64,000 nt of DNA from a virus (Duplodnaviria; Heunggongvirae; Uroviricota; Caudoviricetes): the IMG/VR virus record IMGVR_UViG_3300046507_000435, positions 1 to 64,000 of that record, one strand, 5' to 3'. Each line of letters opens with the position of its first letter. The first letter of the stretch is position 1. The translations under genes and the position numbers were made by a program. Below are positions 4,279-30,040 of this stretch, in pieces. The notes under the pieces were generated by a model, which saw only the letters and a program-made list of their open reading frames with translations, had not been told where the DNA came from and searched no databases.

Positions 4279-5523
4279 TCATTTTGGCAACTGCTTCCCG
4301 GCCCAGGTGCGTAGCCAATTCTTGAACATAGCGCGCTCCAGGGAAACCTTGAATTCACCGGTTTCTTCATCGTAGGACTTGCAGTCATTGACGCCTTCCG
4401 TACCCACGTATTGACTGGCCAGCCGGTGCAGTTGTTCTGGCTCTAGGGCGTTGATAAGCTTGGTAATTGCGCGCGCGCGTGCGGCTTCTGACTGTTCCTT
4501 GTGAACACTGGCTTGGTTCTGCGCCAGTTCAGCTGCAGACTTAGCGGCAGCCTTCTTTGCTCGCGCCTCGGCGCGCGCCGGATCGTTGCCAATTGCGCCG
4601 CCACTTTCATAGACGGTCCGCAAATAGCCGGCCGGGTTCTCCAGTTGTCGTTCACGGTCTATGGCCTGAACGTGTTCCACAGCGCGCGCGGCGCGCTCCG
4701 GGTCTTGTATCACCCATACCAAGGCTAGCTTTTCGCCAATGCCGACTTCCAGCAAGCTCTTGAAGATAGGCGATTCGCGTACGGAATCCTCAACCGACTC
4801 GGCGCCGAATAGACTCTGCTGGACTGCCGCCTTGACCGAAAACCGAATGTCCTTGACCCTGCGCAGTTCGCGCCGATACTCCGGCTCGATTTCAATATCA
4901 GACACCTTGTTGACCTCTTCCACGGACTTCTTTATGACCTCGTTCGATAGATGCTTAAACGTGTCATAGCGAGGCGCGTCAGCACCCAGCAGCTGGCGCC
5001 AAGTATCGACGCCAATCCAGCCAGTCGAACCGACGTTCTTGAAGCGTACGCAGTTCTCCCATAAAGTCAGTGCGTAGCTACTGCTGAACTCGTTCTGAAT
5101 GCCCACGTTGATGGTGGCATAAATCTCCGGGTTTGCCAGTTCTTCGGCTAAGAATTGGGCGTACTGGTAAGAGCACACGCCGCCCTCGATGCGAGCGCCC
5201 GCCAATAACGCCATCGACTGCCAGGCCTTTTTCTTGCCGCTCTTGTTAAGAACGTCGAACGTTATGACGCAGCGCACGATATTCTCCAGGGCGGCTTTCA
5301 GGTTCTCGACGCCGCCATCCTGTCCCCAGCCTAATAAATCCAGCAGCACCGGAACGGGGATCGTGTGGACCGTCTTCGTCAGCAAGTCATCGTAGGCGTT
5401 GAGCAGCATGATGTTGACGATTTTCCTCTCCAACAGGGAGAGGTCGCCGCTCATATGGATGTGCGCCACGTTTTTCTTTAAAGGCCGCCGTGCCTTCGGT
5501 GCCACCATATTGGACTCGCCCAT
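4279..5523 (-). CDS. repA: plasmid replication initiator (Rep_3-like, iteron-binding)
   Basis: N-terminal LSLLERKIVNIMLLNAYDDLL matches the Rep_3 winged-helix signature. The gene lies immediately downstream of five 19-bp iterons and an AT-rich tract. Confidence 0.7.
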   Translation of the reverse strand: MGESNMVAPKARRPLKKNVAHIHMSGDLSLLERKIVNIMLLNAYDDLLTKTVHTIPVPVLLDLLGWGQDGGVENLKAALENIVRCVITFDVLNKSGKKKAWQSMALLAGARIEGGVCSYQYAQFLAEELANPEIYATINVGIQNEFSSSYALTLWENCVRFKNVGSTGWIGVDTWRQLLGADAPRYDTFKHLSNEVIKKSVEEVNKVSDIEIEPEYRRELRRVKDIRFSVKAAVQQSLFGAESVEDSVRESPIFKSLLEVGIGEKLALVWVIQDPERAARAVEHVQAIDRERQLENPAGYLRTVYESGGAIGNDPARAEARAKKAAAKSAAELAQNQASVHKEQSEAARARAITKLINALEPEQLHRLASQYVGTEGVNDCKSYDEETGEFKVSLERAMFKNWLRTWAGKQLPK

Positions 5524-5544
5524 GCGCTTCCCTCCCCTATCGCC

Positions 5545-5661
5545 GGTACAAAACCCGGACCTTACGGTACAAAACCCGGACCTTTCCCGTACAAAACCCG
5601 GACCTTATATTTCCGCTTACGGTACAAAAACCGGACCTTTCCGGTACAAAACCCGGACCTT
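5545..5661. repeat. iteron array of the plasmid-type origin (oriV)
   Basis: Five direct copies of GGTACAAAACCCGGACCTT at 5545, 5566, 5588, 5621 and 5643. The 5588 copy begins CGTACA and the 5621 copy has an internal AAAAACCGG variant. Spacing is 21-33 bp. An AT-rich region (5670-5770) follows. Confidence 0.8.
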
Positions 5662-5777
5662 TCGCGTTGCACTATATAAGGTGTAAACGCTTTTAAAGCT
5701 GTTGTATTTCTAAACAGAAACAACAACAAGATTCTCGTTGGTGTTTTTTTTAAAAAATCACAAAGCCCCCTCTTCCG

Positions 5778-6308
5778 CTACTTCTCCAGATCCTTGAGCA
5801 TTTTCGCCACGGTGCGCTCAATCGAATCAAGGCAAATCGCGTGTATCGACTTGCTGGTTGACCGTTCTAGCAAGTAGGAGAGCTTCATGTGCAATTCTTC
5901 CGGCAATCGCATACTGAAAATCACTTTAAGCCGAGGGTCTGCTTTTGCCCAAGGATACCCTTTTCCGGGCGCTGACGGCGTTTTTGCCTCACTGGTGGCA
6001 TCTGGGGTTGGTGAATGATCTGTTTCGCTCTCTACGGACTGCGAGAGCGCTTCATAGCCTGCTTTGCCGTTGCCGCCCATCTTGCCTCGATTGGAAATTG
6101 CCGCTATTGCAGGCATGGTCGCGGTGGCTTCTGCTGCTGCCGGCTCTGGCCCTAACTCGGCGGTTACGGCTTCGGTCACTTGGCCAGGGGTGTAGCCTGG
6201 GTCGGCCAGTTTAGAGGCGGCTAGCTCCCTCACCTGCTCTTCGGACAATGGTTTTGGCGGCACTGTTGGCGGCCGGAACGCTGGTCGTGCATTTTTGCTC
6301 ATGCCCAA
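5778..6308 (-). CDS. ParG-like ribbon-helix-helix centromere-binding protein
   Basis: C-terminal MRLPEELHMKLSYLLERSTSKSIHAICLDSIER has the RHH (Arc/MetJ/CopG) pattern. It lies directly downstream of parA with overlapping stop and start. The N-terminal part is Pro/Ala-rich and looks disordered. Confidence 0.55.
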   Translation of the reverse strand: MGMSKNARPAFRPPTVPPKPLSEEQVRELAASKLADPGYTPGQVTEAVTAELGPEPAAAEATATMPAIAAISNRGKMGGNGKAGYEALSQSVESETDHSPTPDATSEAKTPSAPGKGYPWAKADPRLKVIFSMRLPEELHMKLSYLLERSTSKSIHAICLDSIERTVAKMLKDLEK

Positions 6309-6967
6309 ATCTCCTTGTAAATTGCCTCGGCTTCGGCGATGGCCTTATTATCGAGCGCAGGCAGCTCATCGAGCGACATGCCAAATTCGGCCACATCGAA
6401 ATAGGCCACGCGCTGCGGAACCATTGGCTCCAGCAACTGGTATTCTGGGCAATATTCCAGGATGAATTCCCTTACCCGGTCCTCTCGCTTGGAATTCGGG
6501 TTGGTCGACACGGCGTTGAGGAAAGCGATCGCCTGCAGCTTTGCGTTGACAATGCGTGTGTCGGCAATGGTTTGGCTCATGGATGCCATAGTCGCTGTAT
6601 CGAACCTGGCCGGCCGGCACGGTGTCACCAGTTTGTCTGCGACAGTCATGGCTACGCGCAACTCAACCGAATTAGATCCGGCGCAGTCCACAATGATGTC
6701 GTCGTAGCGCGGCTTCAGGTCCAGCAGGCGCTTGGCGATGCTGTTTCCGGTCAAGGTGATGCAGTTCAGTGGCGGCTGCAGCGGTGCAAGCCCCTCCTCT
6801 TTGCCGTAGTTCTCGCGCTGCACCGCAAAATCATTTGCCGAGCCCTGCGGATCTACGTCCACAACCAGCACGTCACGGCCAGCTTTCATTCGCCACACGG
6901 CATTGTTTGCCGCATGCGTCGATTTGCCGGAGCCGCCCTTCTGCCCTCCAAAAATAACTATTGCCAT
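6299..6967 (-). CDS. parA: ParA/Soj-family partition ATPase (small type Ib)
   Basis: MAIVIFGGQKGGSGKST is the deviant Walker A. DVDPQGS is the ParA motif. AAGGGG lies 7 nt upstream of ATG 6967. The track ORF extends to 7033. Confidence 0.85.
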   Translation of the reverse strand: MAIVIFGGQKGGSGKSTHAANNAVWRMKAGRDVLVVDVDPQGSANDFAVQRENYGKEEGLAPLQPPLNCITLTGNSIAKRLLDLKPRYDDIIVDCAGSNSVELRVAMTVADKLVTPCRPARFDTATMASMSQTIADTRIVNAKLQAIAFLNAVSTNPNSKREDRVREFILEYCPEYQLLEPMVPQRVAYFDVAEFGMSLDELPALDNKAIAEAEAIYKEIWA

Positions 6968-7105
6968 ATTGATCCCCTTAAAAAGTGAGTAAACCGCAAT
7001 GTTTATTATGGACATCAATTTACCTAATGGCAAGTGAATTCGTGCGAATTGGTGCGATTCGATTCGGATTGATTCGAAGTGAGTTTAAGTGAATTGGTTC
7101 GGATC

Positions 7106-7278
7106 GATGTGACACGGAATGATGTGACACGGAATGATGTGACACGGATTGATGTGACACGGATTGATGTGACACGGAATGATGTGACACGGATTGATGT
7201 GACACGGATTGATGTGACACGGAATGATGTGACACGGATTGATGTGACACGGATTGATGTAGATCGATTCCGTGTGAC
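7106..7278. repeat. centromere-like tandem array (parC/parS) upstream of parA
   Basis: Ten tandem 15-bp units GATGTGACACGG(A/T)AT, ending in an inverted CCGTGTGAC copy. A second GTGGTG-rich repeat block follows at 7280-7380. Confidence 0.75.
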
Positions 7279-7381
7279 TTGGTGTGGTGTGGTGCTATGT
7301 GGTGCTATTCAACATAGCTTGGAATTGCTTCTATAGCTTCGTGTGGAGTGGTGTGGTGTGATATGGTGCTATAGGGGTGAT

Positions 7382-7585
7382 CTACTGAAGATCGTCTAGG
7401 GTCGATTTCAAGGCTAGTAGATCAATCGCATTACGCAGCGTCGGGTGCCAGTCATTCGTACCCAGGATGCGCACCGCAGGCTTGCCGCCGGCCATGCCGC
7501 AAACGAAGCCGCCCGCCCGTTCCAGCAGGTCGAGGCGGGCGGTGTCGTCCAGCTGGGCAGGTGTCTTACTGGCGCGCCTGGCCAT
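7382..7585 (-). CDS. hypothetical small protein (leftward early operon)
   Basis: 67 aa with ordinary composition. Last gene of a run of minus-strand small ORFs. Confidence 0.35.
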   Translation of the reverse strand: MARRASKTPAQLDDTARLDLLERAGGFVCGMAGGKPAVRILGTNDWHPTLRNAIDLLALKSTLDDLQ

Positions 7586-7803
7586 AGACTTCAGGGTGCA
7601 GGGAAGGGTGGTGCCACGGCAGCGGCGCCGGCGTAGGCAGCGGTGCGCCTTGTGATATGGCGATGATGTCTTTCACCAGCGCGATGAGTTCGCGCCGGTT
7701 GAAGTGGAAGATGGCGCCGCCGCTGCGCTTGTGATGGGCGTTCGCCCGGTTCAGGATCAGGCTGGGCGTGACCGGAACGGGTGGCGTGAACCGTTGTTTT
7801 TTC
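7566..7803 (-). CDS. hypothetical small protein (GTG start overlapping the upstream stop)
   Basis: A GTGA overlap with the stop of the 7802..8368 gene. The upstream part of the track ORF (7566..8162) is R-rich junk, so only the distal 78 codons are proposed. Confidence 0.25.
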
Positions 7804-8368
7804 ACGCCGCCAGTGCCAGAGCCGGTTTCGACATGATAGCCTGTAATGCCTCGGGCCACTGCGTCCCGATCGGGAAACTGCGGTAGGCGATCGGCTCGCT
7901 GGCGAGCGACACCTGCAGCCGTGGGGCTTCCTTGTCGGTGCCGGGCGTCCATACCAGTTTCAGCAACGCTTCCAGGCAAGCGGCGTTGCCGGCCTGCACC
8001 GCCATCGTGGTGCGCATCTGGTGCAGGACATGCAGCGGGTCGCATTCGGTGCCCGGCGGGAAACCCGCCGCCGCGCAGATATGGTCGTAGAGGGTCTGCA
8101 GCAGCTGCTCGGTGGTGGTCTTGCCGACTTCCTTGAAGACGTTGCGGGTCGCGTCCATGCACTGGTCCGCAGCCTCGGTATCGATGCCGTCATCGGACAG
8201 GCAGGCCTCCAGCATGATGCTGGCGGCACGGTCCATGATGGTTTGCTGACGTTTGATGTAGTCAGCCTGGTTGGCTATCTGCTGTTCCAGCGCGGCGATG
8301 TAGGCCGCCGCCTCTGGCGAATGGGGAATGGCTGCGTCAGGACGCGGCTGGGCAATCGGAGCTGTCAT
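7802..8368 (-). CDS. hypothetical protein
   Basis: 188 aa with protein-like composition (Y, D/E, Q). No recognisable motif. Confidence 0.5.
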   Translation of the reverse strand: MTAPIAQPRPDAAIPHSPEAAAYIAALEQQIANQADYIKRQQTIMDRAASIMLEACLSDDGIDTEAADQCMDATRNVFKEVGKTTTEQLLQTLYDHICAAAGFPPGTECDPLHVLHQMRTTMAVQAGNAACLEALLKLVWTPGTDKEAPRLQVSLASEPIAYRSFPIGTQWPEALQAIMSKPALALAA

Positions 8369-9325: not shown

Positions 9326-10387
9326 GTGGCTGTTTTCGTTGTTGATAAGGCTATATACTTCCGCGATAACCCGGAGAAACAACTTATGCTAGGGAGCTTG
9401 CCGCTCTACCGCCATCCCACCATCACTGTCCTGATCGAGGGATCACACGAAGCCGTCGATGCCCTGTGGGCTCGGCTGGACCCTGCGCTCATGGTCCATG
9501 TGGCGGCCGATCCCGCCGCCGCCCAGGCGAGCATCGAGATCAGCACGGAGGCGCTGCATCAGCTGGGCGACCCGATCGTGTTGCTGGACCCGGACATGGT
9601 CAGCGCCGCTGCCGCGCTGGACGATCGCCTGCACTCCATTTACCGCTACATCGCGGGGCCGCAGCGCTTCTGCGCGCCGGCCGTGGTGGTGGTCGAGTAT
9701 GATGCCGCCAGCCGCGGCATGGTGGCCTGCGAGGAAGTGTCGAGCGTGCCAGGCAAAAAGATCTGGTACACCGCCTCCAGCAACAGCCAGGAGGGCATCG
9801 ATGCCTTCAATCAGCGCTGGATCGATCGCTTTGTGCGCAATGACCAGGTGGAATCGGTGAGTCAGCTTGAGAAAGAGATAGTGGTTTTGCAGAATGAATA
9901 TTTCATGGACCGTTCGCGCCAGCTGGGCGAGGTCGAGGCCGACTCCGACGCCTACAGCTTCCTGTTCGACCCGGATTTTGTCGCATTGGTCGATGACCTG
10001 GCTGACCGCTACGGCTTTGTCGAGCATTACCTGTTCTGCGCGCCCAGCGGGTTGCTGTTCTTTGATGCCGACGCCAATCCCACCTTGATGGCGGTGCACA
10101 CCGAGGACAGCATGGTGCGCCAGTTCGAACTGGCGCGGGATCTGAGCGCCCCGGCCGACCTGCTGCAGGACATTTTCGAGTGCCGGGTGGTGCCGTTTTG
10201 TCTGGAGGCGATCGGCGCCGCGCCGCAGGCCGATGCGGGCGCGCTGGAGCGCGGCTGCCGGCCGGCGTCGGTTTGTCGCGGCCGGATGGACTATTACTGG
10301 GCCTTGTTCGATCTGCCGCCGGCGTTCCGCAAGGCGGAACCATTTTCCCATGCGCGCTTCATGCGCGACTACAGCGCGGTCGCCTAG
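9326..10387 (+). CDS. hypothetical protein with an N-terminal receiver-like (CheY-like) segment
   Basis: 353 aa, D/E/F/Y-rich and normal-looking. ITVLIEGSHEA and DPIVLLDPDM resemble receiver beta1/beta3 strands, a weak match. The antisense ORF 9443..10351 is R-rich. Convergent with the luxR-family gene. Confidence 0.5.
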   Translation: MAVFVVDKAIYFRDNPEKQLMLGSLPLYRHPTITVLIEGSHEAVDALWARLDPALMVHVAADPAAAQASIEISTEALHQLGDPIVLLDPDMVSAAAALDDRLHSIYRYIAGPQRFCAPAVVVVEYDAASRGMVACEEVSSVPGKKIWYTASSNSQEGIDAFNQRWIDRFVRNDQVESVSQLEKEIVVLQNEYFMDRSRQLGEVEADSDAYSFLFDPDFVALVDDLADRYGFVEHYLFCAPSGLLFFDADANPTLMAVHTEDSMVRQFELARDLSAPADLLQDIFECRVVPFCLEAIGAAPQADAGALERGCRPASVCRGRMDYYWALFDLPPAFRKAEPFSHARFMRDYSAVA

Positions 10388-11559
10388 CGCGTTTCCCGGC
10401 TGATCAGCCCCATGCGCAGCGCCACGTCGACCAGTTGCGGCGTGGTGTCGGCGCCCAGCTTCTTCTTCATGAACTTGATGCGCCGATCGATGGTGGGGAT
10501 GCTCATCGCCGTGATGGCGGCAATTTCCTTGCGCCCCTTGCCGCCCAGCATCAACCCGATAATTTCGATGTCATTCTCGGGCAGCGCGCGCTCATAGCGC
10601 GAGGTGGCGTAGCGCGCCGGGCTGGCCAGCATGCGCTGCATCAGCTGGTGCGCCAAGGCGGCGAGGCGGCGCAAATTTGGCTCGATGCCGGCCAGCTCAT
10701 GGTCACTGATGGCGGCGTCCGGGCGCGACAGCACCAGGGCCGCCGTGCCGTCGGTGGAGCGCATCAGCCAGCCCGACCCAATGCCATTCTCCATGGCCAG
10801 CGTCCAGAAGGCGGCGTTTTTGCCGCGTTGCTCACGCGCGCTCCATGCGGCCGGCCCCAGCCCGCCATGCAGGCGCGGGTCGATCATGATCAGGTGTTCG
10901 CGCTGATAGACCTCCTGCCACCGCCCCAGAAAATTGTCTTCCACCACCAGCGCGCCCGGATCGAGTGGGTCATGGGCCAGTGCCAGCGTGTGGTTAAAGC
11001 CAAAGCGCTCGCGCGCCAATTTGGCGATCTGCGAGAACTGTTTATTGTCGGGCAGCTGCGCCAGGCCCGGCAACACCCTGTCGGCCCATGCCTCGGTGCC
11101 GTCGCGGTGATCTGGATGGGTGGGGGGTAGGTCGGGGATGACCGCAATGTTGGTCACCGGCATCGGCTGCGACGCCGGCCTGGCCGGGCGCGCCGGTGCA
11201 GCTGTGATCGGGTGCCACTGGCGGCGGCGGCGGATCTTGTTCAATGCAAAACAGGTCAGGGCGTCTTGCGGCAGGGCAGTCTGCCCATCGGGCGCCAGCA
11301 GGACGATATTCGATTCAATGCCATCCGCGGTGACCACGAAATCATGGGCGCGCTCATCGTAGTACCAATGCCAGCGTAGCCAAACCGGCGCATGTTGCGG
11401 TCCCAGCCACTCGCAATGGCCCGCCATCTTGGCAGGCAGCATGCGCCGCAGCTGGAGCAACATGGCGTCATCCAGCTCGGTCGAAATTCGGCGCGGGAGC
11501 AGGGCGGCGAGGTCTTTGCGAGTGATGCGAACTGCGGTTTCGTGGGTGTTGCCGGTCAT
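10384..11559 (-). CDS. LuxR-family autoinducer-binding transcriptional regulator (possible internal start at 11163)
   Basis: C-terminal LPENDIEIIGLMLGGKGRKEIAAITAMSIPTIDRRIKFMKKKLGADT is a LuxR-type HTH (GerE). The preceding about 170 aa (QFSQIAKLARERFGFNHTLALAH...AAFWTLAMENGIGSGWLM) look like an autoinducer-binding domain. The ORF also carries a 130-aa N-terminal extension. Confidence 0.75.
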   Translation of the reverse strand: MTGNTHETAVRITRKDLAALLPRRISTELDDAMLLQLRRMLPAKMAGHCEWLGPQHAPVWLRWHWYYDERAHDFVVTADGIESNIVLLAPDGQTALPQDALTCFALNKIRRRRQWHPITAAPARPARPASQPMPVTNIAVIPDLPPTHPDHRDGTEAWADRVLPGLAQLPDNKQFSQIAKLARERFGFNHTLALAHDPLDPGALVVEDNFLGRWQEVYQREHLIMIDPRLHGGLGPAAWSAREQRGKNAAFWTLAMENGIGSGWLMRSTDGTAALVLSRPDAAISDHELAGIEPNLRRLAALAHQLMQRMLASPARYATSRYERALPENDIEIIGLMLGGKGRKEIAAITAMSIPTIDRRIKFMKKKLGADTTPQLVDVALRMGLISRETR

Positions 11560-11771: not shown

Positions 11772-12026
11772 ATGGCACATGGCAGCGTAGGCAACGGCGC
11801 AAGCTTGAATGGAATGGATTTTGGCGCGATGACGCAGGACGAGGCGCGTTCGTTCATGAACGGCTGTTTTGACAAGATGACGACCGCCTCGCGCGTCTAT
11901 GTGATGGGGGTCATGCTGGCCTGCAGCACCCAGTTTCCCAGCGCGGCGCCAGCGCATGGGCACACGCCGGCGCCCAAGCCAGTCCGCTTGCGCCTAGTGC
12001 AGGCTAGCGGCGGGCTTCGCGGGTAA
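11772..12026 (+). CDS. small ORF divergent from luxR and abutting the repressor gene (candidate LuxR-controlled effector)
   Basis: 84 aa, Met/Cys-containing and coding-like. Divergent from luxR across a 212-bp AT-rich intergenic region containing palindromes. Its 3' end overlaps the convergent cI-like gene. Confidence 0.35.
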   Translation: MAHGSVGNGASLNGMDFGAMTQDEARSFMNGCFDKMTTASRVYVMGVMLACSTQFPSAAPAHGHTPAPKPVRLRLVQASGGLRG

Positions 12027-12422
12027 TTCTTCGGCAGGCTTCTTCTGGATCATCGCGGCCGACAGCAGCAGCTGCTGCTTGCCCAAGTCGGTACCTTCAC
12101 GGAAGTGCGACAGCAGCACCGCCTCCTGCACCGTATCGACGTACATCAGCAGCAGCGGCGGTACCGCTGGCGGCGGTGGTGGCGGCAGTTGCTCCGGTGC
12201 CTCGCCGAAACGCAGGTAGGTTGGCGTGGTGTGCAGAAAGGCGGCGATTTTCGGCAGCAGCTTCGCGCGCGGGTACTGTTCCCCGGCCAGCCACTTGCTG
12301 ACCGCTTGCGGGGTGCAGCCGGCGGCGCGCGCCAGCGCCGACTGGTTGCCCTCGGCGTGTTGGTCGAGCAACTTCTGCAGTCGCGCCGCAAACTCGGCCA
12401 ATTCAACATTTGATGTGTTCAT
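11994..12422 (-). CDS. CI-like XRE-family HTH repressor without a peptidase domain
   Basis: LARAAGCTPQAVSKWLAGEQYP is the HTH_3 signature. A poly-Pro linker follows (PPPPPPAVPP). Only 142 aa, with no S24 LexA-like C-terminal domain. Divergent from the cII-like gene. Confidence 0.7.
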   Translation of the reverse strand: MNTSNVELAEFAARLQKLLDQHAEGNQSALARAAGCTPQAVSKWLAGEQYPRAKLLPKIAAFLHTTPTYLRFGEAPEQLPPPPPPAVPPLLLMYVDTVQEAVLLSHFREGTDLGKQQLLLSAAMIQKKPAEELPAKPAASLH

Positions 12423-12613: not shown

Positions 12614-12928
12614 ATGACCGACGTACCCGCAACACCGACCAACGAAGAATCCAGTCTTGACTACTCCCGGCTCCCCATGTTCGGCGAGGACGAAGTATCA
12701 CCGGAAATCATTGATCGCACGCGCAAAAACAGCGCGATTATTTTGCAAAGTTTGAACAACCTGGGCGCCAGCCGCATCGCTCGCATCATGGGCATCCATG
12801 ATTCCGCCATTTCCCGCTTCAAGACCCACGGCATGCTGATGTGGGTGAGTCGCCTGTTCGCATGCCTGGGCCTGAAGATCGTGCCAGAGTCGGCCATCGT
12901 CTACCTGCAGCCCGAGGAATACAAATGA
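12614..12928 (+). CDS. CII-like transcriptional activator
   Basis: LGASRIARIMGIHDSAISRFKTHGMLMWVSRLFACLGLKIV parallels lambda CII (GVDKSQISRWKRD...FSMLLAVLEWGV). The position divergent from the repressor fits. Confidence 0.45.
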   Translation: MTDVPATPTNEESSLDYSRLPMFGEDEVSPEIIDRTRKNSAIILQSLNNLGASRIARIMGIHDSAISRFKTHGMLMWVSRLFACLGLKIVPESAIVYLQPEEYK

Positions 12929-19285: not shown

Positions 19286-20342
19286 GCTGATCCGCGGGAT
19301 CTGGCACTACCGCTTTCAGATCGACGGCAAGCGCATCCAGCGCAGCACCCGCCTGCGCGGCCGCAACCGGGGCAAGGCCATGGCGATCGCCCAGCGCGCC
19401 TATGACGATGCCATCACCCTGCGCAACCAGGGCAAGCGCATGCCGACGCTGGCCGAGCTGGCGGCCGAGTGGCTGCGCGTGCGCGGCCCGGTGGTGAGCC
19501 GCGCCCACGCGACCAGCGTGGAGGCCTTCGCGCGCCTGCACCTGTTCGACCTGGGCGCGCTGCGCATCGAGGACATCACCACGCGCCGCGTCGAGCTGGC
19601 CCGCAACGACTACCTCAAAACGCACAAGCCGGCATCGGCCAATCACTGGCTGCGCAATCTGAAACTGGTGGTGAACTGGGCGGTGGCCGATGGCGTGCTG
19701 CCCAAGCTGCCATGGAAGGTGCCGATGATCCCGGTGCAGAAGCGCCCGCGCACGCTGCTGCCGCTGGCCGACACCGTCAAATGGTTCGCCGTCATCGATG
19801 AATTTACACGGCGCCCGGTGGCGCAGGGCGTGGCCACGGCGATCCGCATGATGTACGGGCTGGGCCTGCGCGAAATGGAGGCGGCCGGCGCGCGCTGGGA
19901 GTGGGTCGACTGGGAGCGCGGTACCTACACGCCGGGCAAGACCAAGGGCTACGAGGCCGAGCCGATCGACATGCCGGACTGGCTGGTGGCGCACCTGCTG
20001 CCGCTGCGCCGTGAGTCGGGCCTGATCGCGCCGCGCCGCAATGGCCGCCAGCGGCCCAGCGGCTTCACCGCGACCGCCATGCGCCACGCCAACACCGCCT
20101 GCCAGATCCACGGCCTGACGCCACACCGGCTGCGCGGGACGTTCGCCACGCTGCTGTCCGAGAACGGGGTACCGATACAGGAAGTGCAGGCGGCGCTGCG
20201 CCACAAAGATCCGATGACGACCATGAAGTACCTGGAGAGGAAGCGCGGCACCCTGAAAAAGGGCCAGCAGGGCATCGCCGAGCTGAACGGAATGATGCGG
20301 CAACAAAACGGCGGCGAGCCGGCTGCGGGGGCGCAGCCATGA
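19269..20342 (+). CDS. int: tyrosine recombinase / phage integrase
   Basis: Catalytic R (GLGLREME), HRLRGTFAT (H-x-x-R) and the MKYLE tyrosine. An internal Met at 19269 (MVASVKLIRGIWHYRF) is the likely start; the track ORF starts at 19194. Confidence 0.85.
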   Translation: MVASVKLIRGIWHYRFQIDGKRIQRSTRLRGRNRGKAMAIAQRAYDDAITLRNQGKRMPTLAELAAEWLRVRGPVVSRAHATSVEAFARLHLFDLGALRIEDITTRRVELARNDYLKTHKPASANHWLRNLKLVVNWAVADGVLPKLPWKVPMIPVQKRPRTLLPLADTVKWFAVIDEFTRRPVAQGVATAIRMMYGLGLREMEAAGARWEWVDWERGTYTPGKTKGYEAEPIDMPDWLVAHLLPLRRESGLIAPRRNGRQRPSGFTATAMRHANTACQIHGLTPHRLRGTFATLLSENGVPIQEVQAALRHKDPMTTMKYLERKRGTLKKGQQGIAELNGMMRQQNGGEPAAGAQP

Positions 20343-23930: not shown

Positions 23931-24538
23931 ACGGCCGCTACTTGATGGACGAGGAAGGCGAGAACATCGCCCTGCGCAGCTTCCTGAGGCTGTACGGCGG
24001 CTATAGCGACGCAATTGCCATCAGCACCATGCGCGAACACATGGAATTGTCAGGATGGGATGGCTGCTGGCCAGATTGGGTCAGCACCGCGAAGAAGGGC
24101 GAAACGCTGACCAAAGCAGGCGCCCAACTGTGGATACGCCACCTGATCGCGCTGGAGAAGAGGCCCGTCAGCATCCATCCGAAAGCATCCGTCACGATGC
24201 TCAATAGGATCATTGCGGAGCTGGAGAGCGGCGCCGGCCCCGATCGGAAGATCGACGCGCTCATTGACCTGTGGCGAAAGCGCGGCGTCTGCGGGCATCC
24301 CGACTCTGTGCGCCGATATACCGCCGTGCGCGACTTCGCATTGAAGCTGTTCCCGCGCCAACCAGGTTCCCAGCTGATCATCGAGCGCACGGGCGAGGCC
24401 GGGCAGGTCATCCAGTGCGGCGTCATTGAACAACATTACAACGTCTGGTACGAGGCACACGATCTTTGGCCACCGGCGCGGCAACTGTGCCTCATCGCCT
24501 TAAAGGCTCAGCGGGATCTGATTGCGAGGGAAAATTGA
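23927..24538 (+). CDS. hypothetical protein
   Basis: 203 aa from MNGRYLMDEEGEN. W/C/H-containing. The upstream part of track ORF 23741 is R-rich. Confidence 0.45.
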   Translation: MNGRYLMDEEGENIALRSFLRLYGGYSDAIAISTMREHMELSGWDGCWPDWVSTAKKGETLTKAGAQLWIRHLIALEKRPVSIHPKASVTMLNRIIAELESGAGPDRKIDALIDLWRKRGVCGHPDSVRRYTAVRDFALKLFPRQPGSQLIIERTGEAGQVIQCGVIEQHYNVWYEAHDLWPPARQLCLIALKAQRDLIAREN

Positions 24539-24870
24539 ACCAACAGGATCAGCAGGCCGTCAGCATCGATCCCGCCGGCGGCAAGGACTACACGGTCGTG
24601 ATCATGGGCGGCGGCGGGGATGGCCCTGCCATCAGCAGGATGCTGGCCAAGTTGGCGGCAGATGGTTTTGAGGTCGGCTTTGTCGAGAACTTCAGGTATA
24701 TCAACGATATGGAGCTGAAGCCAAGCATGCTTGACTCCTTCCCCATCATCGCGGCCGACTTGATCGAGCCGCCACCGCTGCGGAATGACTTGGCTGCGCT
24801 TCGCCGCGGTGTGCACGCGCGCGAGAAGCAAAACAGGAAACGGATCACGGGGAAGGGCCGCCGGCGGTAG
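24535..24870 (+). CDS. hypothetical small protein (start uncertain)
   Basis: Coding-like segment GGGGDGPAISRMLAKLAADGFEVGFVENF. A TTG at 24535 overlaps the upstream stop. Confidence 0.3.
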   Translation: MNQQDQQAVSIDPAGGKDYTVVIMGGGGDGPAISRMLAKLAADGFEVGFVENFRYINDMELKPSMLDSFPIIAADLIEPPPLRNDLAALRRGVHAREKQNRKRITGKGRRR

Positions 24871-25183
24871 CATCCGTGTACTGCACTTCGCAGTGCCACA
24901 CCTGGCGCGTTTCCTTGCGCGTCAGTTCGTCCGTTTCAATTCCAGTGATGCGCATCACGCCCTCACGGATAAACAAGACCTCCGCATCGTCCAGCTGGGG
25001 GAGGGCATCGGCCATGACGCCCGGTACGCTAAACCGGGCAGTCTTCGTGTGCCGCTTCCATACGGGATGATAGCGCTGATCTAAACGCAGCTCGCCCAAG
25101 GCGCCGGCACCAGCGAATCCCTCCCGCCACTTTCCCATGGGCCGGCCGCCATCCTCATGGAGCGCCATCGCTCTAACTCGCAT
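24845..25183 (-). CDS. small SOS-regulated protein (candidate Tum-like antirepressor)
   Basis: 112-aa ORF whose upstream region carries a perfect LexA box, 20 bp from the start codon. Confidence 0.4.
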   Translation of the reverse strand: MRVRAMALHEDGGRPMGKWREGFAGAGALGELRLDQRYHPVWKRHTKTARFSVPGVMADALPQLDDAEVLFIREGVMRITGIETDELTRKETRQVWHCEVQYTDATAGGPSP

Positions 25184-25203
25184 AGTTATGCCCCATTAAA
25201 ATA

Positions 25204-25219
25204 CTGTATGTTTGAACAG
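25204..25219. promoter_or_regulatory. LexA (SOS) box
   Basis: CTGTATGTTTGAACAG is an exact CTGT-N8-ACAG match. It is flanked by TA-rich -10-like hexamers and lies between two minus-strand genes, upstream of 24845..25183. Confidence 0.6.
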
Positions 25220-25240
25220 TATAACATTAGGGCACAGCGC

Positions 25241-26134
25241 CTAGCGCTTCTCGCAGGCCATGGCAGCGTCTATCACTTCATCCGCATCCTCGCGGAACTG
25301 ATCGCGGAAGTCATCGAATGTCAACGCTTCGAATTCGTCCCGTGCACGGAATGCTTGCCATCGCGCGGCATCTTGCTCCAGTTCCTCTACCTTGGCGCGG
25401 ATCATGCCCAGCACCGCGAAGGAAACGCCCCACAGTTCAGCGTCATCGGCCGGGATCGCATCAGCCAGACCAAGCTTCGACGCAACCAGACGCAGGCGTT
25501 TACCGCTCTCCCTGTTCGACTCCAAGCGAGGCGTGACATATTCGTCCAGCACGGCCAGGCCAAAATCCGTATGCTCATAGATAGCGGCGGTCATGCGGCG
25601 CACCAGTCCAATTTCAGCCAGGCGCTTCATCATGGGCTTGGCTACATCGTAGCCTTCGCCATCGCTGGCGCACTCATGGAAGCGCCGCAGCGCGGCCATT
25701 TCGTCATCGGCGATCGCAACCGGCAACGGCGCTAACGGGCTATCCAGTGCGGCCGGCACCGACGAGGACGCAACAACGATCGCGCGGCCCTTGTCGCCGA
25801 TCTGGTTGCCAAGCCACAACGATTCGCCATCCGGGTACACGGCGCGCCATTTGCCGTCCTCGCCCTTGTCCGGGTCCAGCTGGACGACAGCAAGTTCACC
25901 GTGGGGATGGCGCAGCGTGTCACCCACGTGGATTGGCTTGCCCTCGTAGTCTGGCCATGGCGCAGCCTGTTGGGCCGTCATGCCTTGCACCGCGTCAGCT
26001 CGTACAGCACGGCGGAGACAGTCGCCGCGACATAGATATAGCCGATCCAGCGGATATAGCCGCCGCCGTTGTTGGCGCCCTGGCGCGCCGTATTCCTGGA
26101 GTTCGTCATGGTCAAATTGAGAGTAGTTGCGCAA
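25241..26134 (-). CDS. hypothetical protein (possible internal start near 25978)
   Basis: 297 aa with D/E-rich normal composition. Both overlapping + ORFs are R/P-rich junk. A TTGCGCAAAGCGCAA palindrome sits at 26128-26142, overlapping the annotated start. Confidence 0.45.
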   Translation of the reverse strand: MRNYSQFDHDELQEYGAPGRQQRRRLYPLDRLYLCRGDCLRRAVRADAVQGMTAQQAAPWPDYEGKPIHVGDTLRHPHGELAVVQLDPDKGEDGKWRAVYPDGESLWLGNQIGDKGRAIVVASSSVPAALDSPLAPLPVAIADDEMAALRRFHECASDGEGYDVAKPMMKRLAEIGLVRRMTAAIYEHTDFGLAVLDEYVTPRLESNRESGKRLRLVASKLGLADAIPADDAELWGVSFAVLGMIRAKVEELEQDAARWQAFRARDEFEALTFDDFRDQFREDADEVIDAAMACEKR

Positions 26135-26336
26135 AGCGCAAAGTATACAGAGCCACCCCTGAAATCAGACCGAAACACTGCACGGGCGCGGCCGCAACAG
26201 GTATGCGAGATTTTCCGCGCAATTTAGTCCTCGCAAAACCCGCACAAAAGCCCGTAAAATTCGCCTCAATTCGATAGGTTGAAAAACTGACTCTTGCGAA
26301 AAGCGCCGTAAAGAAGGCCTTTCAAGAGCATCGAAT

Positions 26337-26414
26337 GCTGCCATAGCTCAGTCGGTAGAGCGGCCGAGGAAAACGTACTTGGTGGCGTCGCTGGTTCGAG
26401 TCCAGCTGGCAGCA
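26337..26414 (+). tRNA. tRNA-like sequence with an aberrant anticodon arm (possible pseudo-tRNA)
   Basis: Good acceptor stem (GCTGCCA/TGGCAGC), D arm (GCTCAGTCGGTAGAGC) and T arm (GCTGGTTCGAGTCCAGC). The 27-nt region between them cannot be folded into a normal anticodon stem-loop. Confidence 0.3.
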
Positions 26415-26564
26415 ACATCGCGGATCAGGTTTGGTGGTGCCGTGTAAAGGCCGGCGCCATATAGCCCTGACGTAGGCGCCAAGCCTGATCCGCCCCCCAG
26501 AAAAAGTAAGGTGCGCGCCCGGTAGCCGGCAGATAGCCGGCGCTGCGGCCCGCACCGAACCCAA

Positions 26565-26640
26565 TGTCATGTAGCTCAGTTGGTAGAGCGTCGGATTGTT
26601 AATCCGGTGGTCGCTGGTTCGATCCCAGCCGTGACAGCCA
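26565..26640 (+). tRNA. tRNA-Asn (GTT)
   Basis: 76 nt. Acceptor TGTCATG/CGTGACA, D arm GCTCAGTTGGTAGAGC, anticodon arm TCGGA-TTGTTAA-TCCGG, T arm GCTGGTTCGATCCCAGC, encoded CCA. Confidence 0.9.
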
Positions 26641-26648
26641 GAACACAT

Positions 26649-26722
26649 GCGGGTGTAGCTCAATGGTAGAGCGGAAGCCTTCCAAGCTTACGACGAGGGT
26701 TCGATTCCCTTCACCCGCTCCA
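26649..26722 (+). tRNA. tRNA-Gly (TCC)
   Basis: 74 nt. Acceptor GCGGGTG/CACCCGC, anticodon loop CTTCCAA, T loop TTCGATT, encoded CCA. Closely parallels enterobacterial tRNA-Gly(UCC). Confidence 0.9.
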
Positions 26723-27885: not shown

Positions 27886-28527
27886 ATGGCAAAGAGCAAA
27901 GACGCTAAAGAAGCGATCGAATGGGATCTGATCGAGCGCGACTGGCGCGCCGGCGTCAAGTCCCAGGCGATCATGTCCAAGGAATACGGCGTGTCGCGCG
28001 CCGCGATGCAAAAGCATTTCGAAAAGCGCGGCATCACCCGCGACCTGGGCGGCAAGGTCCGCTCAGCGGCCGCCACCCTTGTCGCGCAGACCGTCGCCGA
28101 GCAGGCCGCGCCCCTGTCGGCCACCGCCTCGCCGGCGAGCGAGCGCGACATCATCGAGGCCAACGCCGCGATGCAGTCGCAGATCATCCTGCAGCACCGC
28201 AGCGACATCCAGCGATCGCGCCGCCTGTCCATGGCGTTGCTCAATGAGCTGGAGCAGCAGACCGACCACCTTGACCTGATCGAGCAGCTGCAGGACGTGC
28301 TGCACGATCCGGACGACAAGGGCATGGCGCGGCGCCTTGAGCTGCTGGAGCGGCTGACCTCGCTGGGTTCGCGCGCCGGCACCATGAAGTCGCTGGCCGA
28401 CACCCTGCGCAGCCTGGTCACGCTGGAGCGTCAGGCCTTCGGACTGGACGAGAAGACCGACGAGGACAGCGGCAACGGCATCGAGGACGCCATCAAGCGC
28501 GTCGAGGAAAAGCATGGCGGCGATTAA
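27886..28527 (+). CDS. terminase small subunit (HTH-containing)
   Basis: Immediately upstream of and overlapping the large terminase. N-terminal SQAIMSKEYGVSRAAMQKHFEKRG is HTH-like. Size is typical. Confidence 0.55.
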   Translation: MAKSKDAKEAIEWDLIERDWRAGVKSQAIMSKEYGVSRAAMQKHFEKRGITRDLGGKVRSAAATLVAQTVAEQAAPLSATASPASERDIIEANAAMQSQIILQHRSDIQRSRRLSMALLNELEQQTDHLDLIEQLQDVLHDPDDKGMARRLELLERLTSLGSRAGTMKSLADTLRSLVTLERQAFGLDEKTDEDSGNGIEDAIKRVEEKHGGD

Positions 28528-30040
28528 CCAGGCGGCGTTGGACGCCACCATCGCCCGTCTGCGCGCGAATATCGAGCTGCACTGCGAAACCTGCATGTAC
28601 GTGCAGGACAAGAAGGGACAGCGGGTGCTGCTACGCTTTAACAAGGCGCAGCGCTACATCCACGCCAAGATCGAGGAACAGCGCAAGCGCACCGGCAAGG
28701 TGCGCGCCATCATCCTCAAGGGCCGGCAGCAGGGCGCATCGACCTACATTGGCGGGCGCTTCTACGCCATCAGCAGCATCAATTTCGGCCGCAACGCCTT
28801 CATCGTCGCGCACGAACAAAAGGCGACGGACAACCTGTTCAAGATGGTCAAGCGCTATCACGAACATAATCCGTTTCGGCCATCGACCAGCAAGACCAAC
28901 AGCAAGGAGCTGGTATTCAACCGCCTTGACGGTGGCTACAAGCTGGCCACGGCCGGCTCCAAGGACGTGGGCCGATCCAATACGGCGCAGCTGCTGCACG
29001 CCTCCGAGTTCGCCTTCTGGGACAACGCCATCTTGCACATGGCGGGTCTGGGCAATGCCATTTCGGACCAGCCCGGTACCGAAATCATCATCGAGTCCAC
29101 CGCCAACGGCGTGGGCGGCCCATTCCACCAGATGTGGCAGGACGCCGAGGCGGGCATCAGCGAGTACATCGCCATCTTCGTGCCCTGGTTCTGGGAGGAC
29201 GGCTACCGCGCGACGGTGCCGGAGAACTTCGAACTGTCGGCCGACGACATCAAGTACATGGACACCTACGGGCTGGACATGGGGCAGATGGCGTGGCGCC
29301 GCAACAAGATCACCACCTACGGCAAGGGCTTTGAGTGGCTTTTTGATCAAGAGTACCCCGCCACGGCTTCCCTTGCTTTCAAATCTTCGACCGCCGACCC
29401 GCTGATCAACCCAACGACCGTCATGGCGGCCGTCAACAGCGACTTCCGCCAGCGCTCCGGGGCATTCGTCATCGGCTGCGACCCGGCCGAATTCGGCGCC
29501 GACCGCACCGCGATCGCATTCCGCCACGGGCGAACCTGCTACAAGATCGAGTACCACGAAAAAATGGGACCGATGGAAGTGGCCGGCAAGCTGGCCGCCT
29601 ACTACAAGGATCTGCAGCCAGACGCGATTTTCGTGGACAAGATCGGCATCGGGTCGGGCATCGTGGACCGGCTCAAGGAGCTGAACATTCCCGTGATCGG
29701 GGTCAATTCGGCCGAGCGGGCGGAAGACTCCGAGCGCTACGCCAACAAGCGGGCCGAAATCTGGTACCGCTTCAAGGAGTGGCTGGAAGACAGCCCGAAC
29801 CGGATACCGAACGACGCCGCGCTGATCGCCGATATTTCAGCGCCAGGCTACAAGACCCACTCCAACGGCTCCCGTCTGATCGAGGGCAAGCCGGAAATGA
29901 AGAAGCGCGGCGTCCGCTCCCCGGACGGCGCCGACGCGCTCGCCATGACCTTTGCCGAAAACGTCATCCCCCGTGCCCTGCGTGACGACTACGCAGCCGG
30001 GCACACCAGCCGCCAAGCGGCGACCACCGCAGGATATTGA
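28514..30040 (+). CDS. terminase large subunit
   Basis: Walker A-like ILKGRQQGAST close to the N-terminus. 508 aa, with a long C-terminal nuclease-sized domain. Sits directly before the portal region. Confidence 0.8.
   Translation: MAAINQAALDATIARLRANIELHCETCMYVQDKKGQRVLLRFNKAQRYIHAKIEEQRKRTGKVRAIILKGRQQGASTYIGGRFYAISSINFGRNAFIVAHEQKATDNLFKMVKRYHEHNPFRPSTSKTNSKELVFNRLDGGYKLATAGSKDVGRSNTAQLLHASEFAFWDNAILHMAGLGNAISDQPGTEIIIESTANGVGGPFHQMWQDAEAGISEYIAIFVPWFWEDGYRATVPENFELSADDIKYMDTYGLDMGQMAWRRNKITTYGKGFEWLFDQEYPATASLAFKSSTADPLINPTTVMAAVNSDFRQRSGAFVIGCDPAEFGADRTAIAFRHGRTCYKIEYHEKMGPMEVAGKLAAYYKDLQPDAIFVDKIGIGSGIVDRLKELNIPVIGVNSAERAEDSERYANKRAEIWYRFKEWLEDSPNRIPNDAALIADISAPGYKTHSNGSRLIEGKPEMKKRGVRSPDGADALAMTFAENVIPRALRDDYAAGHTSRQAATTAGY

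Follow-up and report, generated by a model that had tools for sequence, protein, structure and literature searches.

A LexA-boxed small gene in a phage-plasmid of a Massilia-like host is a probable SOS cargo gene of a new predicted β-barrel family

We analysed a 64,000-nucleotide stretch of DNA (positions 1 to 64,000 of the virus record IMGVR_UViG_3300046507_000435; hereafter the window), which is a temperate phage-plasmid (Rep3/ParA) of an Oxalobacteraceae (Massilia-like) host. The subject of this analysis is a 112-amino-acid (aa) open reading frame (ORF) on its minus strand (24845-25183) that lies just downstream of a LexA (SOS) box. The explanation we favour, with a probability of roughly 60%, is that this ORF is a LexA-repressed, damage-inducible cargo gene (a ‘moron’) encoding a member of a new family of small β-barrel proteins with a part in damage tolerance or mutagenesis. 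The material that bears on it consists of the box, the conservation of the box, the gene family, the neighbourhoods of its members and a fold prediction. Regulation of this kind is well known, and what is new is the protein family.

A LexA box and a putative promoter upstream of the 112-aa ORF

A preliminary description of this DNA had reported an exact CTGT-N8-ACAG SOS box at 25204..25219, just upstream of the 112-aa ORF. The sequence at 25204-25219, CTGTATGTTTGAACAG, is indeed the sole exact CTGT-N8-ACAG within the window, and it forms the core of a larger, perfect 20-nucleotide (nt) palindrome, TACTGTATGTTTGAACAGTA (25202-25221, no strand assigned), which lies within the 57 nt that separate two minus-strand ORFs and stands 20 nt upstream of the start codon (ATG at 25183). 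The bare 16-mer is not significant, with 0.5 copies expected per window and at least one found in 39 of 100 shuffles. The 20-nt palindrome was reached in none of the 100 shuffles, and it is of the extended TACTGT-N8-ACAGTA type that is ideal for a LexA-repressed gene of the beta/gamma-proteobacterial kind. When one mismatch was permitted, CTGT-N8-ACAG-like sites in the window were rarer than expected by chance, and none was located near the immunity region.

A putative extended −10 element, TGtTATACT (25218..25226, minus strand), was read by hand and overlaps the 5′ half of the LexA box, its final bases (reading from 25226 to 25218) being the opening bases of the box. Because a consensus promoter scan gave no full σ70 −35/−10 pair at this position, we infer the promoter, as we do the binding of LexA at 25202-25221. 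TATACT followed by the box is common to most of the homologous loci described below, several of which also have TTGACC or TTGACA 19 nt upstream. A possible ribosome-binding site, GGGG (25191..25194, minus strand), is suggested by the sequence 8-11 nt upstream of the ATG.

The ORF itself has a normal coding signature. Its start at 25183 is supported by the N-termini of the family, which align from residue 1, and by the spacing between box and start, which is alike in most homologues and commonly 17-21 nt. The ORF converges on a plus-strand gene (24535-24870), taken as real because the GC content at its third codon positions (GC3) is 0.81; this gene is clearly coding, and the LexA-controlled unit is therefore monocistronic. 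A LexA-driven antirepressor ORF further downstream on the minus strand was also considered and rejected, as the coding signature there belongs to the plus-strand ORF.

Conservation of the box with the gene

The comparison set comprised 22 loci that carry the family gene, namely the window and 21 retrieved loci. Six of the latter (L002, L003, L004, L007, L015 and L016) represent a syntenic Telluria/Massilia chromosomal locus, in which the gene stands between a GGDEF-EAL gene and hydrolase/MarR/MFS genes. The others are a Pseudoduganella plasmid (L008), islands with HipA, AbiEii and integrase genes (L009, L010 and L012), phage-like contigs (L005, L006 and L014), the closest homologue, at 54% identity (L066), and annotated plasmids (L067-L070) of Massilia sp. 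WG5, Massilia sp. H6 and M. putida together with the Methylibium PM1 megaplasmid. Three sister phages (L017, L018 and L026) were found through a 508-aa ORF of the window used as TerL (28514-30040), which retrieves 73-85% identical relatives in viral contigs. Conjugative or mobilisable plasmids are among those that carry the family.

A perfect CTGT-N8-ACAG sequence was found within about 40 nt upstream of the start of the family gene in all 22 loci. When the upstream regions were stacked on the box, only ataCTGT...ACAGTatt was kept, while the 8-nt spacer and the remaining flanks varied, a pattern that marks selection on the contacts with LexA. In another sister phage a genuine umuD-umuC operon is preceded by this motif too, which shows that it is the working SOS box of the host clade. 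LexA control of the gene family is strongly supported by the perfect box at every locus, and in Massilia, Telluria and Pseudoduganella the family appears to belong constantly to the SOS regulon; a single member comes from Methylibium (Sphaerotilaceae).

What is conserved as a unit is the small gene together with its box. Since a gene of about 300 aa precedes the chromosomal copies of the family as well, we considered a two-gene cassette of upstream ORF and small gene, but the upstream proteins of the window and of the chromosomal loci are unrelated (BLASTP E 0.19) and this idea was rejected. The upstream ORF of the window is listed at 25241-26134 (297 aa), and gene callers place its start at 25981 (246 aa; contig L001). 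In the chromosomal Telluria/Massilia loci the gene that always precedes the family gene is PP2C-like (about 290-317 aa, with a weak PF13672 match; L002 4028-4921, L003 1248-2111 and L007 3948-4901), and the LexA box lies between the two.

A family of small predicted β-barrel proteins

A k-mer-indexed search with the 112-aa protein returned only the protein itself; 49 relatives were recovered when 1.84 billion cluster representatives were scanned exhaustively with HMMER. Most are about 100 aa long, and some of about 200 aa consist of two domain copies in tandem. In the family alignment G81 and W96 are invariant and G13, G30, A49, L64, A67 and Q94 nearly so, and the conserved motifs are EDGGRP, R20, R43-R44, D66-A67 and TAQSW. 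Conservation of EDGGRP, R20, R44, D66-A67, G81, Q94 and W96 extends over all the contexts in which the gene occurs. The family alignments contain no conserved 7-10-mer.

The AlphaFold2 model of the 112-aa protein is a confident all-β barrel, with a predicted local distance difference test score of 91.7. The predicted barrel has been likened to a PH-like fold, a 7-stranded barrel with a C-terminal helix as its cap, although structural matches in the PDB are weak and none is close. A fold search of BFVD gave no significant match, and a profile search of PDB sequences with the family returned none. The existence of fused two-domain versions suggests that the protein probably acts as a dimer. The isoelectric point is near neutral, and a role as DNA mimic is therefore unlikely and one as protein binder possible.

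The family is previously undescribed and taxonomically narrow, belonging to the Burkholderiales and mainly to the Oxalobacteraceae. Pfam, NCBIfam and PADLOC gave no meaningful match for the ORF and its relatives (35 family members), and the sole PHROGs match was a weak one to a family of unknown function. Specifically, no S24, YolD (PF08863) or DinI Pfam domain was detected in the 35 members at E values up to 0.1; the S24 negative is backed by a UmuD control, in which the same Pfam library detects Peptidase_S24. There was no match to two family members by tblastn among the INPHARED phages, to the window protein itself in PLSDB, or to the window protein as single query in IMG/VR and GTDB genomes. 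Matches from a megablast of the region against phages were confined to the tRNAs.

Damage-tolerance neighbours and a variable cargo slot

Where the family gene has tightly linked partners on the same strand, these are damage-tolerance genes, namely imuB, imuA and genes for SRAP proteins (PF02586, YedK/HMCES-type), separated from it by 4-10 nt or overlapping it. On the Massilia sp. WG5 plasmid an imuB ORF with an IMS domain starts 6 nt past the stop of the family gene, and the C-terminus of its product matches the ImuB-C profile with 93% probability (hhalign, E 3e-7). RefSeq annotates imuA 4 nt past the family gene in the plasmid of M. putida. A SRAP gene lies directly downstream of the family gene or overlaps it in L017 (4638-5603), L018 (2620-3252) and L066 (2663-3382), in each case behind the LexA box of the family gene, and in L026 (616-1578) it is encoded on the opposite strand, about 2 kb away. 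A UDG-family gene is located immediately upstream of the family gene in the island locus L009, and DNA-ligase fragments are found upstream in the Pseudoduganella plasmid. With near-identical neighbourhoods collapsed, a repair neighbour is present in about 8 of about 14 independent contexts.

The imuB gene of the WG5 plasmid is annotated as ‘DNA polymerase Y family protein’ (L068 6319-7809; NZ_CP012641.2), and its annotated start seems too far downstream. The in-frame ATG 6 nt past the family gene adds an N-terminus beginning MRLWVAVYLPHLALEAYFP, which we judge to be typical of ImuB. No dnaE2 is annotated nearby.

In the phage group to which the window belongs, the family gene occupies a variable cargo slot between the early genes and the tRNA/terminase block. 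We compared this slot in phages whose TerL is 76-85% identical, among those holding the family gene or umuDC. The window has the LexA box and the family gene; L017 and L018 have box, family gene and SRAP gene; and L026 has box and family gene, with its SRAP gene at the distance given above. In L022 (TerL 76% identical; the same contig as L065) the slot directly before the tRNA/terminase block instead holds a umuD (S24)-umuC (IMS) operon (6494-8296) behind a perfect LexA box, TATACTGTGTTTTTATACAGTATA. Five further phages (L019-L021, L024 and L025) have neither family gene, SRAP gene nor umuDC. This arrangement resembles the SOS cargo of other prophages and plasmids (umuDC/rulAB/mucAB, dinI, and SRAP/YoqW of SPbeta), where a LexA-boxed accessory gene likewise sits in a variable slot, and the likeness extends to the sister phage with umuDC at exactly the position of the window gene. 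The difference is that the protein family of the window gene is new.

A proposed role in SOS damage tolerance

We propose that in the undamaged cell host LexA would sit on the 20-nt palindrome overlapping the −10 element and shut the small promoter. Upon DNA damage, RecA-stimulated self-cleavage of LexA would free the promoter, and the resulting monocistronic mRNA would be translated into the 112-aa all-β protein. This protein may then help in damage tolerance and mutagenesis during the SOS response, as an accessory or adaptor without enzymatic activity, in a niche comparable to that of UmuD, YolD or ImuB-C. Such a role seems the most likely one because the family is elsewhere co-transcribed with imuB, imuA or the gene for SRAP, which shields abasic sites.

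UmuD′, YolD/YqjX and standalone ImuB-C proteins share this niche in several respects: they are all-β proteins of about 80-110 aa under LexA regulation, encoded beside genes for Y-family polymerases, ImuA or SRAP, and found on phages and plasmids too (PMC3765255, PMC6511836, PMC12926913). The ImuB-C barrel is reported to lack a close PDB relative (same sources), as the family barrel does, and a conserved C-terminal Trp and basic residues are common to ImuB-C and the family. We asked whether the family could be a standalone ImuB-C by comparing its alignment with ImuB-C reference sequences from the supplement of PMC12926913 (motif W..WW...RxY...W; sets of 5 and 7 sequences). The hhalign probability was 0.1% with both sets, whereas the ImuB from Massilia used as positive control gave 93%, and this identification was rejected. 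The Massilia ImuB that adjoins a family gene, moreover, already has an ImuB-C domain of its own. The family further differs from UmuD/S24 and YolD in having no Pfam S24 or YolD match. It is thus like UmuD′, YolD and ImuB-C by position and regulation, as a small β-rich protein of LexA-linked translesion synthesis or SRAP operons, but fits none of them by sequence; the likeness is one of niche.

A more specific version of this role is possible, and we put it forward tentatively: the family may be an unrecognised dimeric β-barrel partner of ImuA/ImuB(-DnaE2) and/or SRAP in SOS tolerance of the Burkholderiales. It would then be a functional analogue of UmuD′, YolD or ImuB-C, unrelated in sequence, acting in translesion synthesis and abasic-site tolerance, and phage-plasmids, plasmids and islands would use it to tune the damage tolerance or mutagenesis of the host once the SOS response fires. 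Which components make up the mutagenic and damage-tolerance systems of the imu and SRAP genes is a matter of current work (PMC12926913). If our favoured explanation is correct, the box and gene would offer a clean entry point to a hitherto undescribed protein family of the SOS regulon, one that accompanies imuA, imuB and SRAP.

Alternative explanations

Several observations weigh against the cargo-gene explanation. It is from neighbourhood association that we infer the molecular role; about 6 of the roughly 14 independent contexts have no repair neighbour; and in the window the gene stands alone, its 64 kb having yielded neither imu nor SRAP genes. Three further points also count against this explanation. 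The CI-like repressor of the window lacks an S24 domain and would be unable to cleave itself, the sole LexA box of the window precedes a small monocistronic gene, and the LexA operons of Gifsy and PSP3 pair an antirepressor with the SOS cargo gene dinI (PMC3121763).

Among the alternatives, the one that survives best, although we consider it unlikely, is that the gene encodes another kind of SOS-induced effector, directed at a conserved target in the host, with the repair genes merely sharing its LexA promoter. Candidates would be a modulator of RecA or LexA (the niche of DinI, PsiB and RecX), a division inhibitor (SulA, SidA and Kil), or a toxin or defence factor. LexA control is universal in the family, which rides many types of mobile element as dinI and psiB do, and some copies are found among HipA/AbiE toxin-antitoxin modules. 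The PH-like barrel, with its weak PDB matches, suggests a protein-binding module, and the near-neutral isoelectric point is compatible with one. However, PADLOC, Pfam and NCBIfam gave no match to DinI, SulA or defence proteins, and the tight translational coupling to imuB, imuA and SRAP genes suggests more than the sharing of a promoter.

The preliminary description had proposed that the 112-aa protein is an antirepressor of the Tum or AntC type. In this account it would be made under LexA control after DNA damage and bind the non-cleavable 142-aa CI, inducing the phage-plasmid. The premise concerning the repressor is sound. The CI-like protein (11994-12422, minus strand) consists of an HTH_3 domain (residues 26-70), a proline-rich linker and a short C-terminal domain; a Pfam scan, in which the UmuD control was S24-positive, found HTH families only and no Peptidase_S24; and its homologues in the database are uniformly short (8 of 8 at 136-143 aa, on contigs of about 75-79 kb). 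The promoter architecture is nearly identical to that of p95-tum in coliphage 186, a 56%-identical 141-aa CI occurs together with a boxed family member in a sister phage (L017/L031), and small β-barrel antirepressors do exist, as exemplified by CarS (PMC2926617).

The comparative data nevertheless make an antirepressor improbable, more so than the effector considered above. The boxed family gene is also found on chromosomes, plasmids and islands where a phage immunity module, and hence a phage repressor, is absent, and its recurrent operon partners are imuB, imuA and SRAP genes, with translational coupling to imuB and imuA on plasmids. We compared the immunity regions of the sister phages L017/L031 and L022/L065. 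In L022/L065 a CI of 137 aa (45% identical), a CII (48% identical) and a small ORF are all retained, but umuDC is in the slot and no family gene is present in the approximately 30 kb of contig examined. The family proteins of the window and L017 are too diverged to be linked by tblastn although their CI proteins are 56% identical, and thus do not co-vary with them. The surface-type motifs are common to all contexts, which suggests one conserved cellular target rather than diverse repressors. Neither Tum nor the N15 ORF adjoining a LexA box matched the family in profile comparisons, and a conserved small ORF beside CI, described below, is a better candidate. The linkage to SRAP within phages is not decisive against an antirepressor, because the LexA operons of Gifsy and PSP3 mix both functions. 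A LexA box before a small gene and a CI that does not cleave itself do not by themselves identify a Tum-like antirepressor, and a phage-plasmid with a quorum-sensing module may carry SOS-controlled cargo without this being its SOS induction switch.

The likeness to coliphage 186 is one of arrangement. There, too, a small gene far from the immunity region has its own promoter just upstream, with a LexA box across the −10 element, and RecA does not bring about cleavage of the repressor. The LexA operator annotated for p95, TACTGTATGTTTATACAGTA, differs from the window box at 2 of 20 positions, both central. Tum, in contrast, has a DinI-like domain (PF06183; control match 1.8e-17), which the window protein lacks, and its hhalign probability against the family profile was 0.1%. 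Tum is also phage-specific, whereas the family occurs mostly outside phages and has links to imu and SRAP genes. A parallel between tum-orf97 and the family-SRAP pair was rejected, as 186 Orf97 has no Pfam match and does not qualify as a SRAP protein.

The LexA-controlled antirepressors AntC of N15 and GfoA/GftA of the lambdoid Gifsy prophages share the regulatory logic, and N15 is likewise a plasmid-prophage that carries a second LexA box before the cargo gene umuD. In the right half of N15 (L051) there are two perfect LexA boxes (1661-1676 and 19565-19580), one before umuD (gp26) and the other before a 79-aa ORF (19593-19832) that lacks annotation and is flanked by genes 47 and 48. We presume this ORF to be antC from its position alone. 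Its hhalign probability against the family, on this assumption, was 0.1%.

A chance palindrome beside a non-functional ORF would fit the expectation of 0.5 bare 16-mers per window and the consensus scan without a full σ70 promoter, but it is effectively refuted by the absence of the 20-mer from 100 shuffles, the box at 22 of 22 loci, the conservation of the family (49 representative clusters) and its confidently predicted fold.

The immunity region and the phage-plasmid backbone

An 84-aa ORF (11772-12026, plus strand; GC3 0.76) is flanked by the LuxR gene, from which it diverges, and by the 3′ end of CI, on which it converges with an overlap. It had no Pfam match. The ORF is kept beside CI in two sister phages (L031 10382-10609, minus strand; L065 3911-4144, plus strand), with 35% identity to the L065 counterpart by tblastn. 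We regard it as a better antirepressor candidate than the LexA-controlled 112-aa ORF, and the search for the induction trigger of this phage group moves to this conserved small ORF beside CI and the LuxR gene.

The LuxR module mentioned in the preliminary description is real: the gene (10384-11559, minus strand) encodes a LuxR-type receptor with DUF4902, Autoind_bind and GerE domains. Together with the 84-aa ORF it looks like an induction module of transcription factor and small ORF, of the kind reportedly described for VP882- and ARM81ld-type phage-plasmids. DUF4902 is an extra N-terminal domain ahead of the autoinducer-binding domain in the receptor. A 353-aa ORF of unknown function (9326-10387, plus strand) converges on the LuxR gene with a 4-nt overlap. 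A CII-like gene is present at 12614-12928, and the window also encodes an O-like replication protein and a tyrosine recombinase.

Plasmid maintenance is encoded in a block at 4279-7336, from which it follows that the element is a phage-plasmid. It comprises genes for a Rep3 initiator (4279-5523, minus strand) and ParA (6299-7033, minus strand). Also in this block, the 15-bp unit CGGATTGATGTGACA is repeated 10.7 times at 7100-7260, an array resembling iterons or a partition site. The Rep protein, unlike the structural genes, has no relatives in IMG/VR. Three tRNA genes (Phe-GAA, Asn-GTT and Gly-TCC; 26336-26722, plus strand) separate the cargo slot from the terminase genes, and the ORFs beyond them are taken to be putative terminase and structural genes. 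The tRNA-Phe call is, at 81 nt, unusually long.

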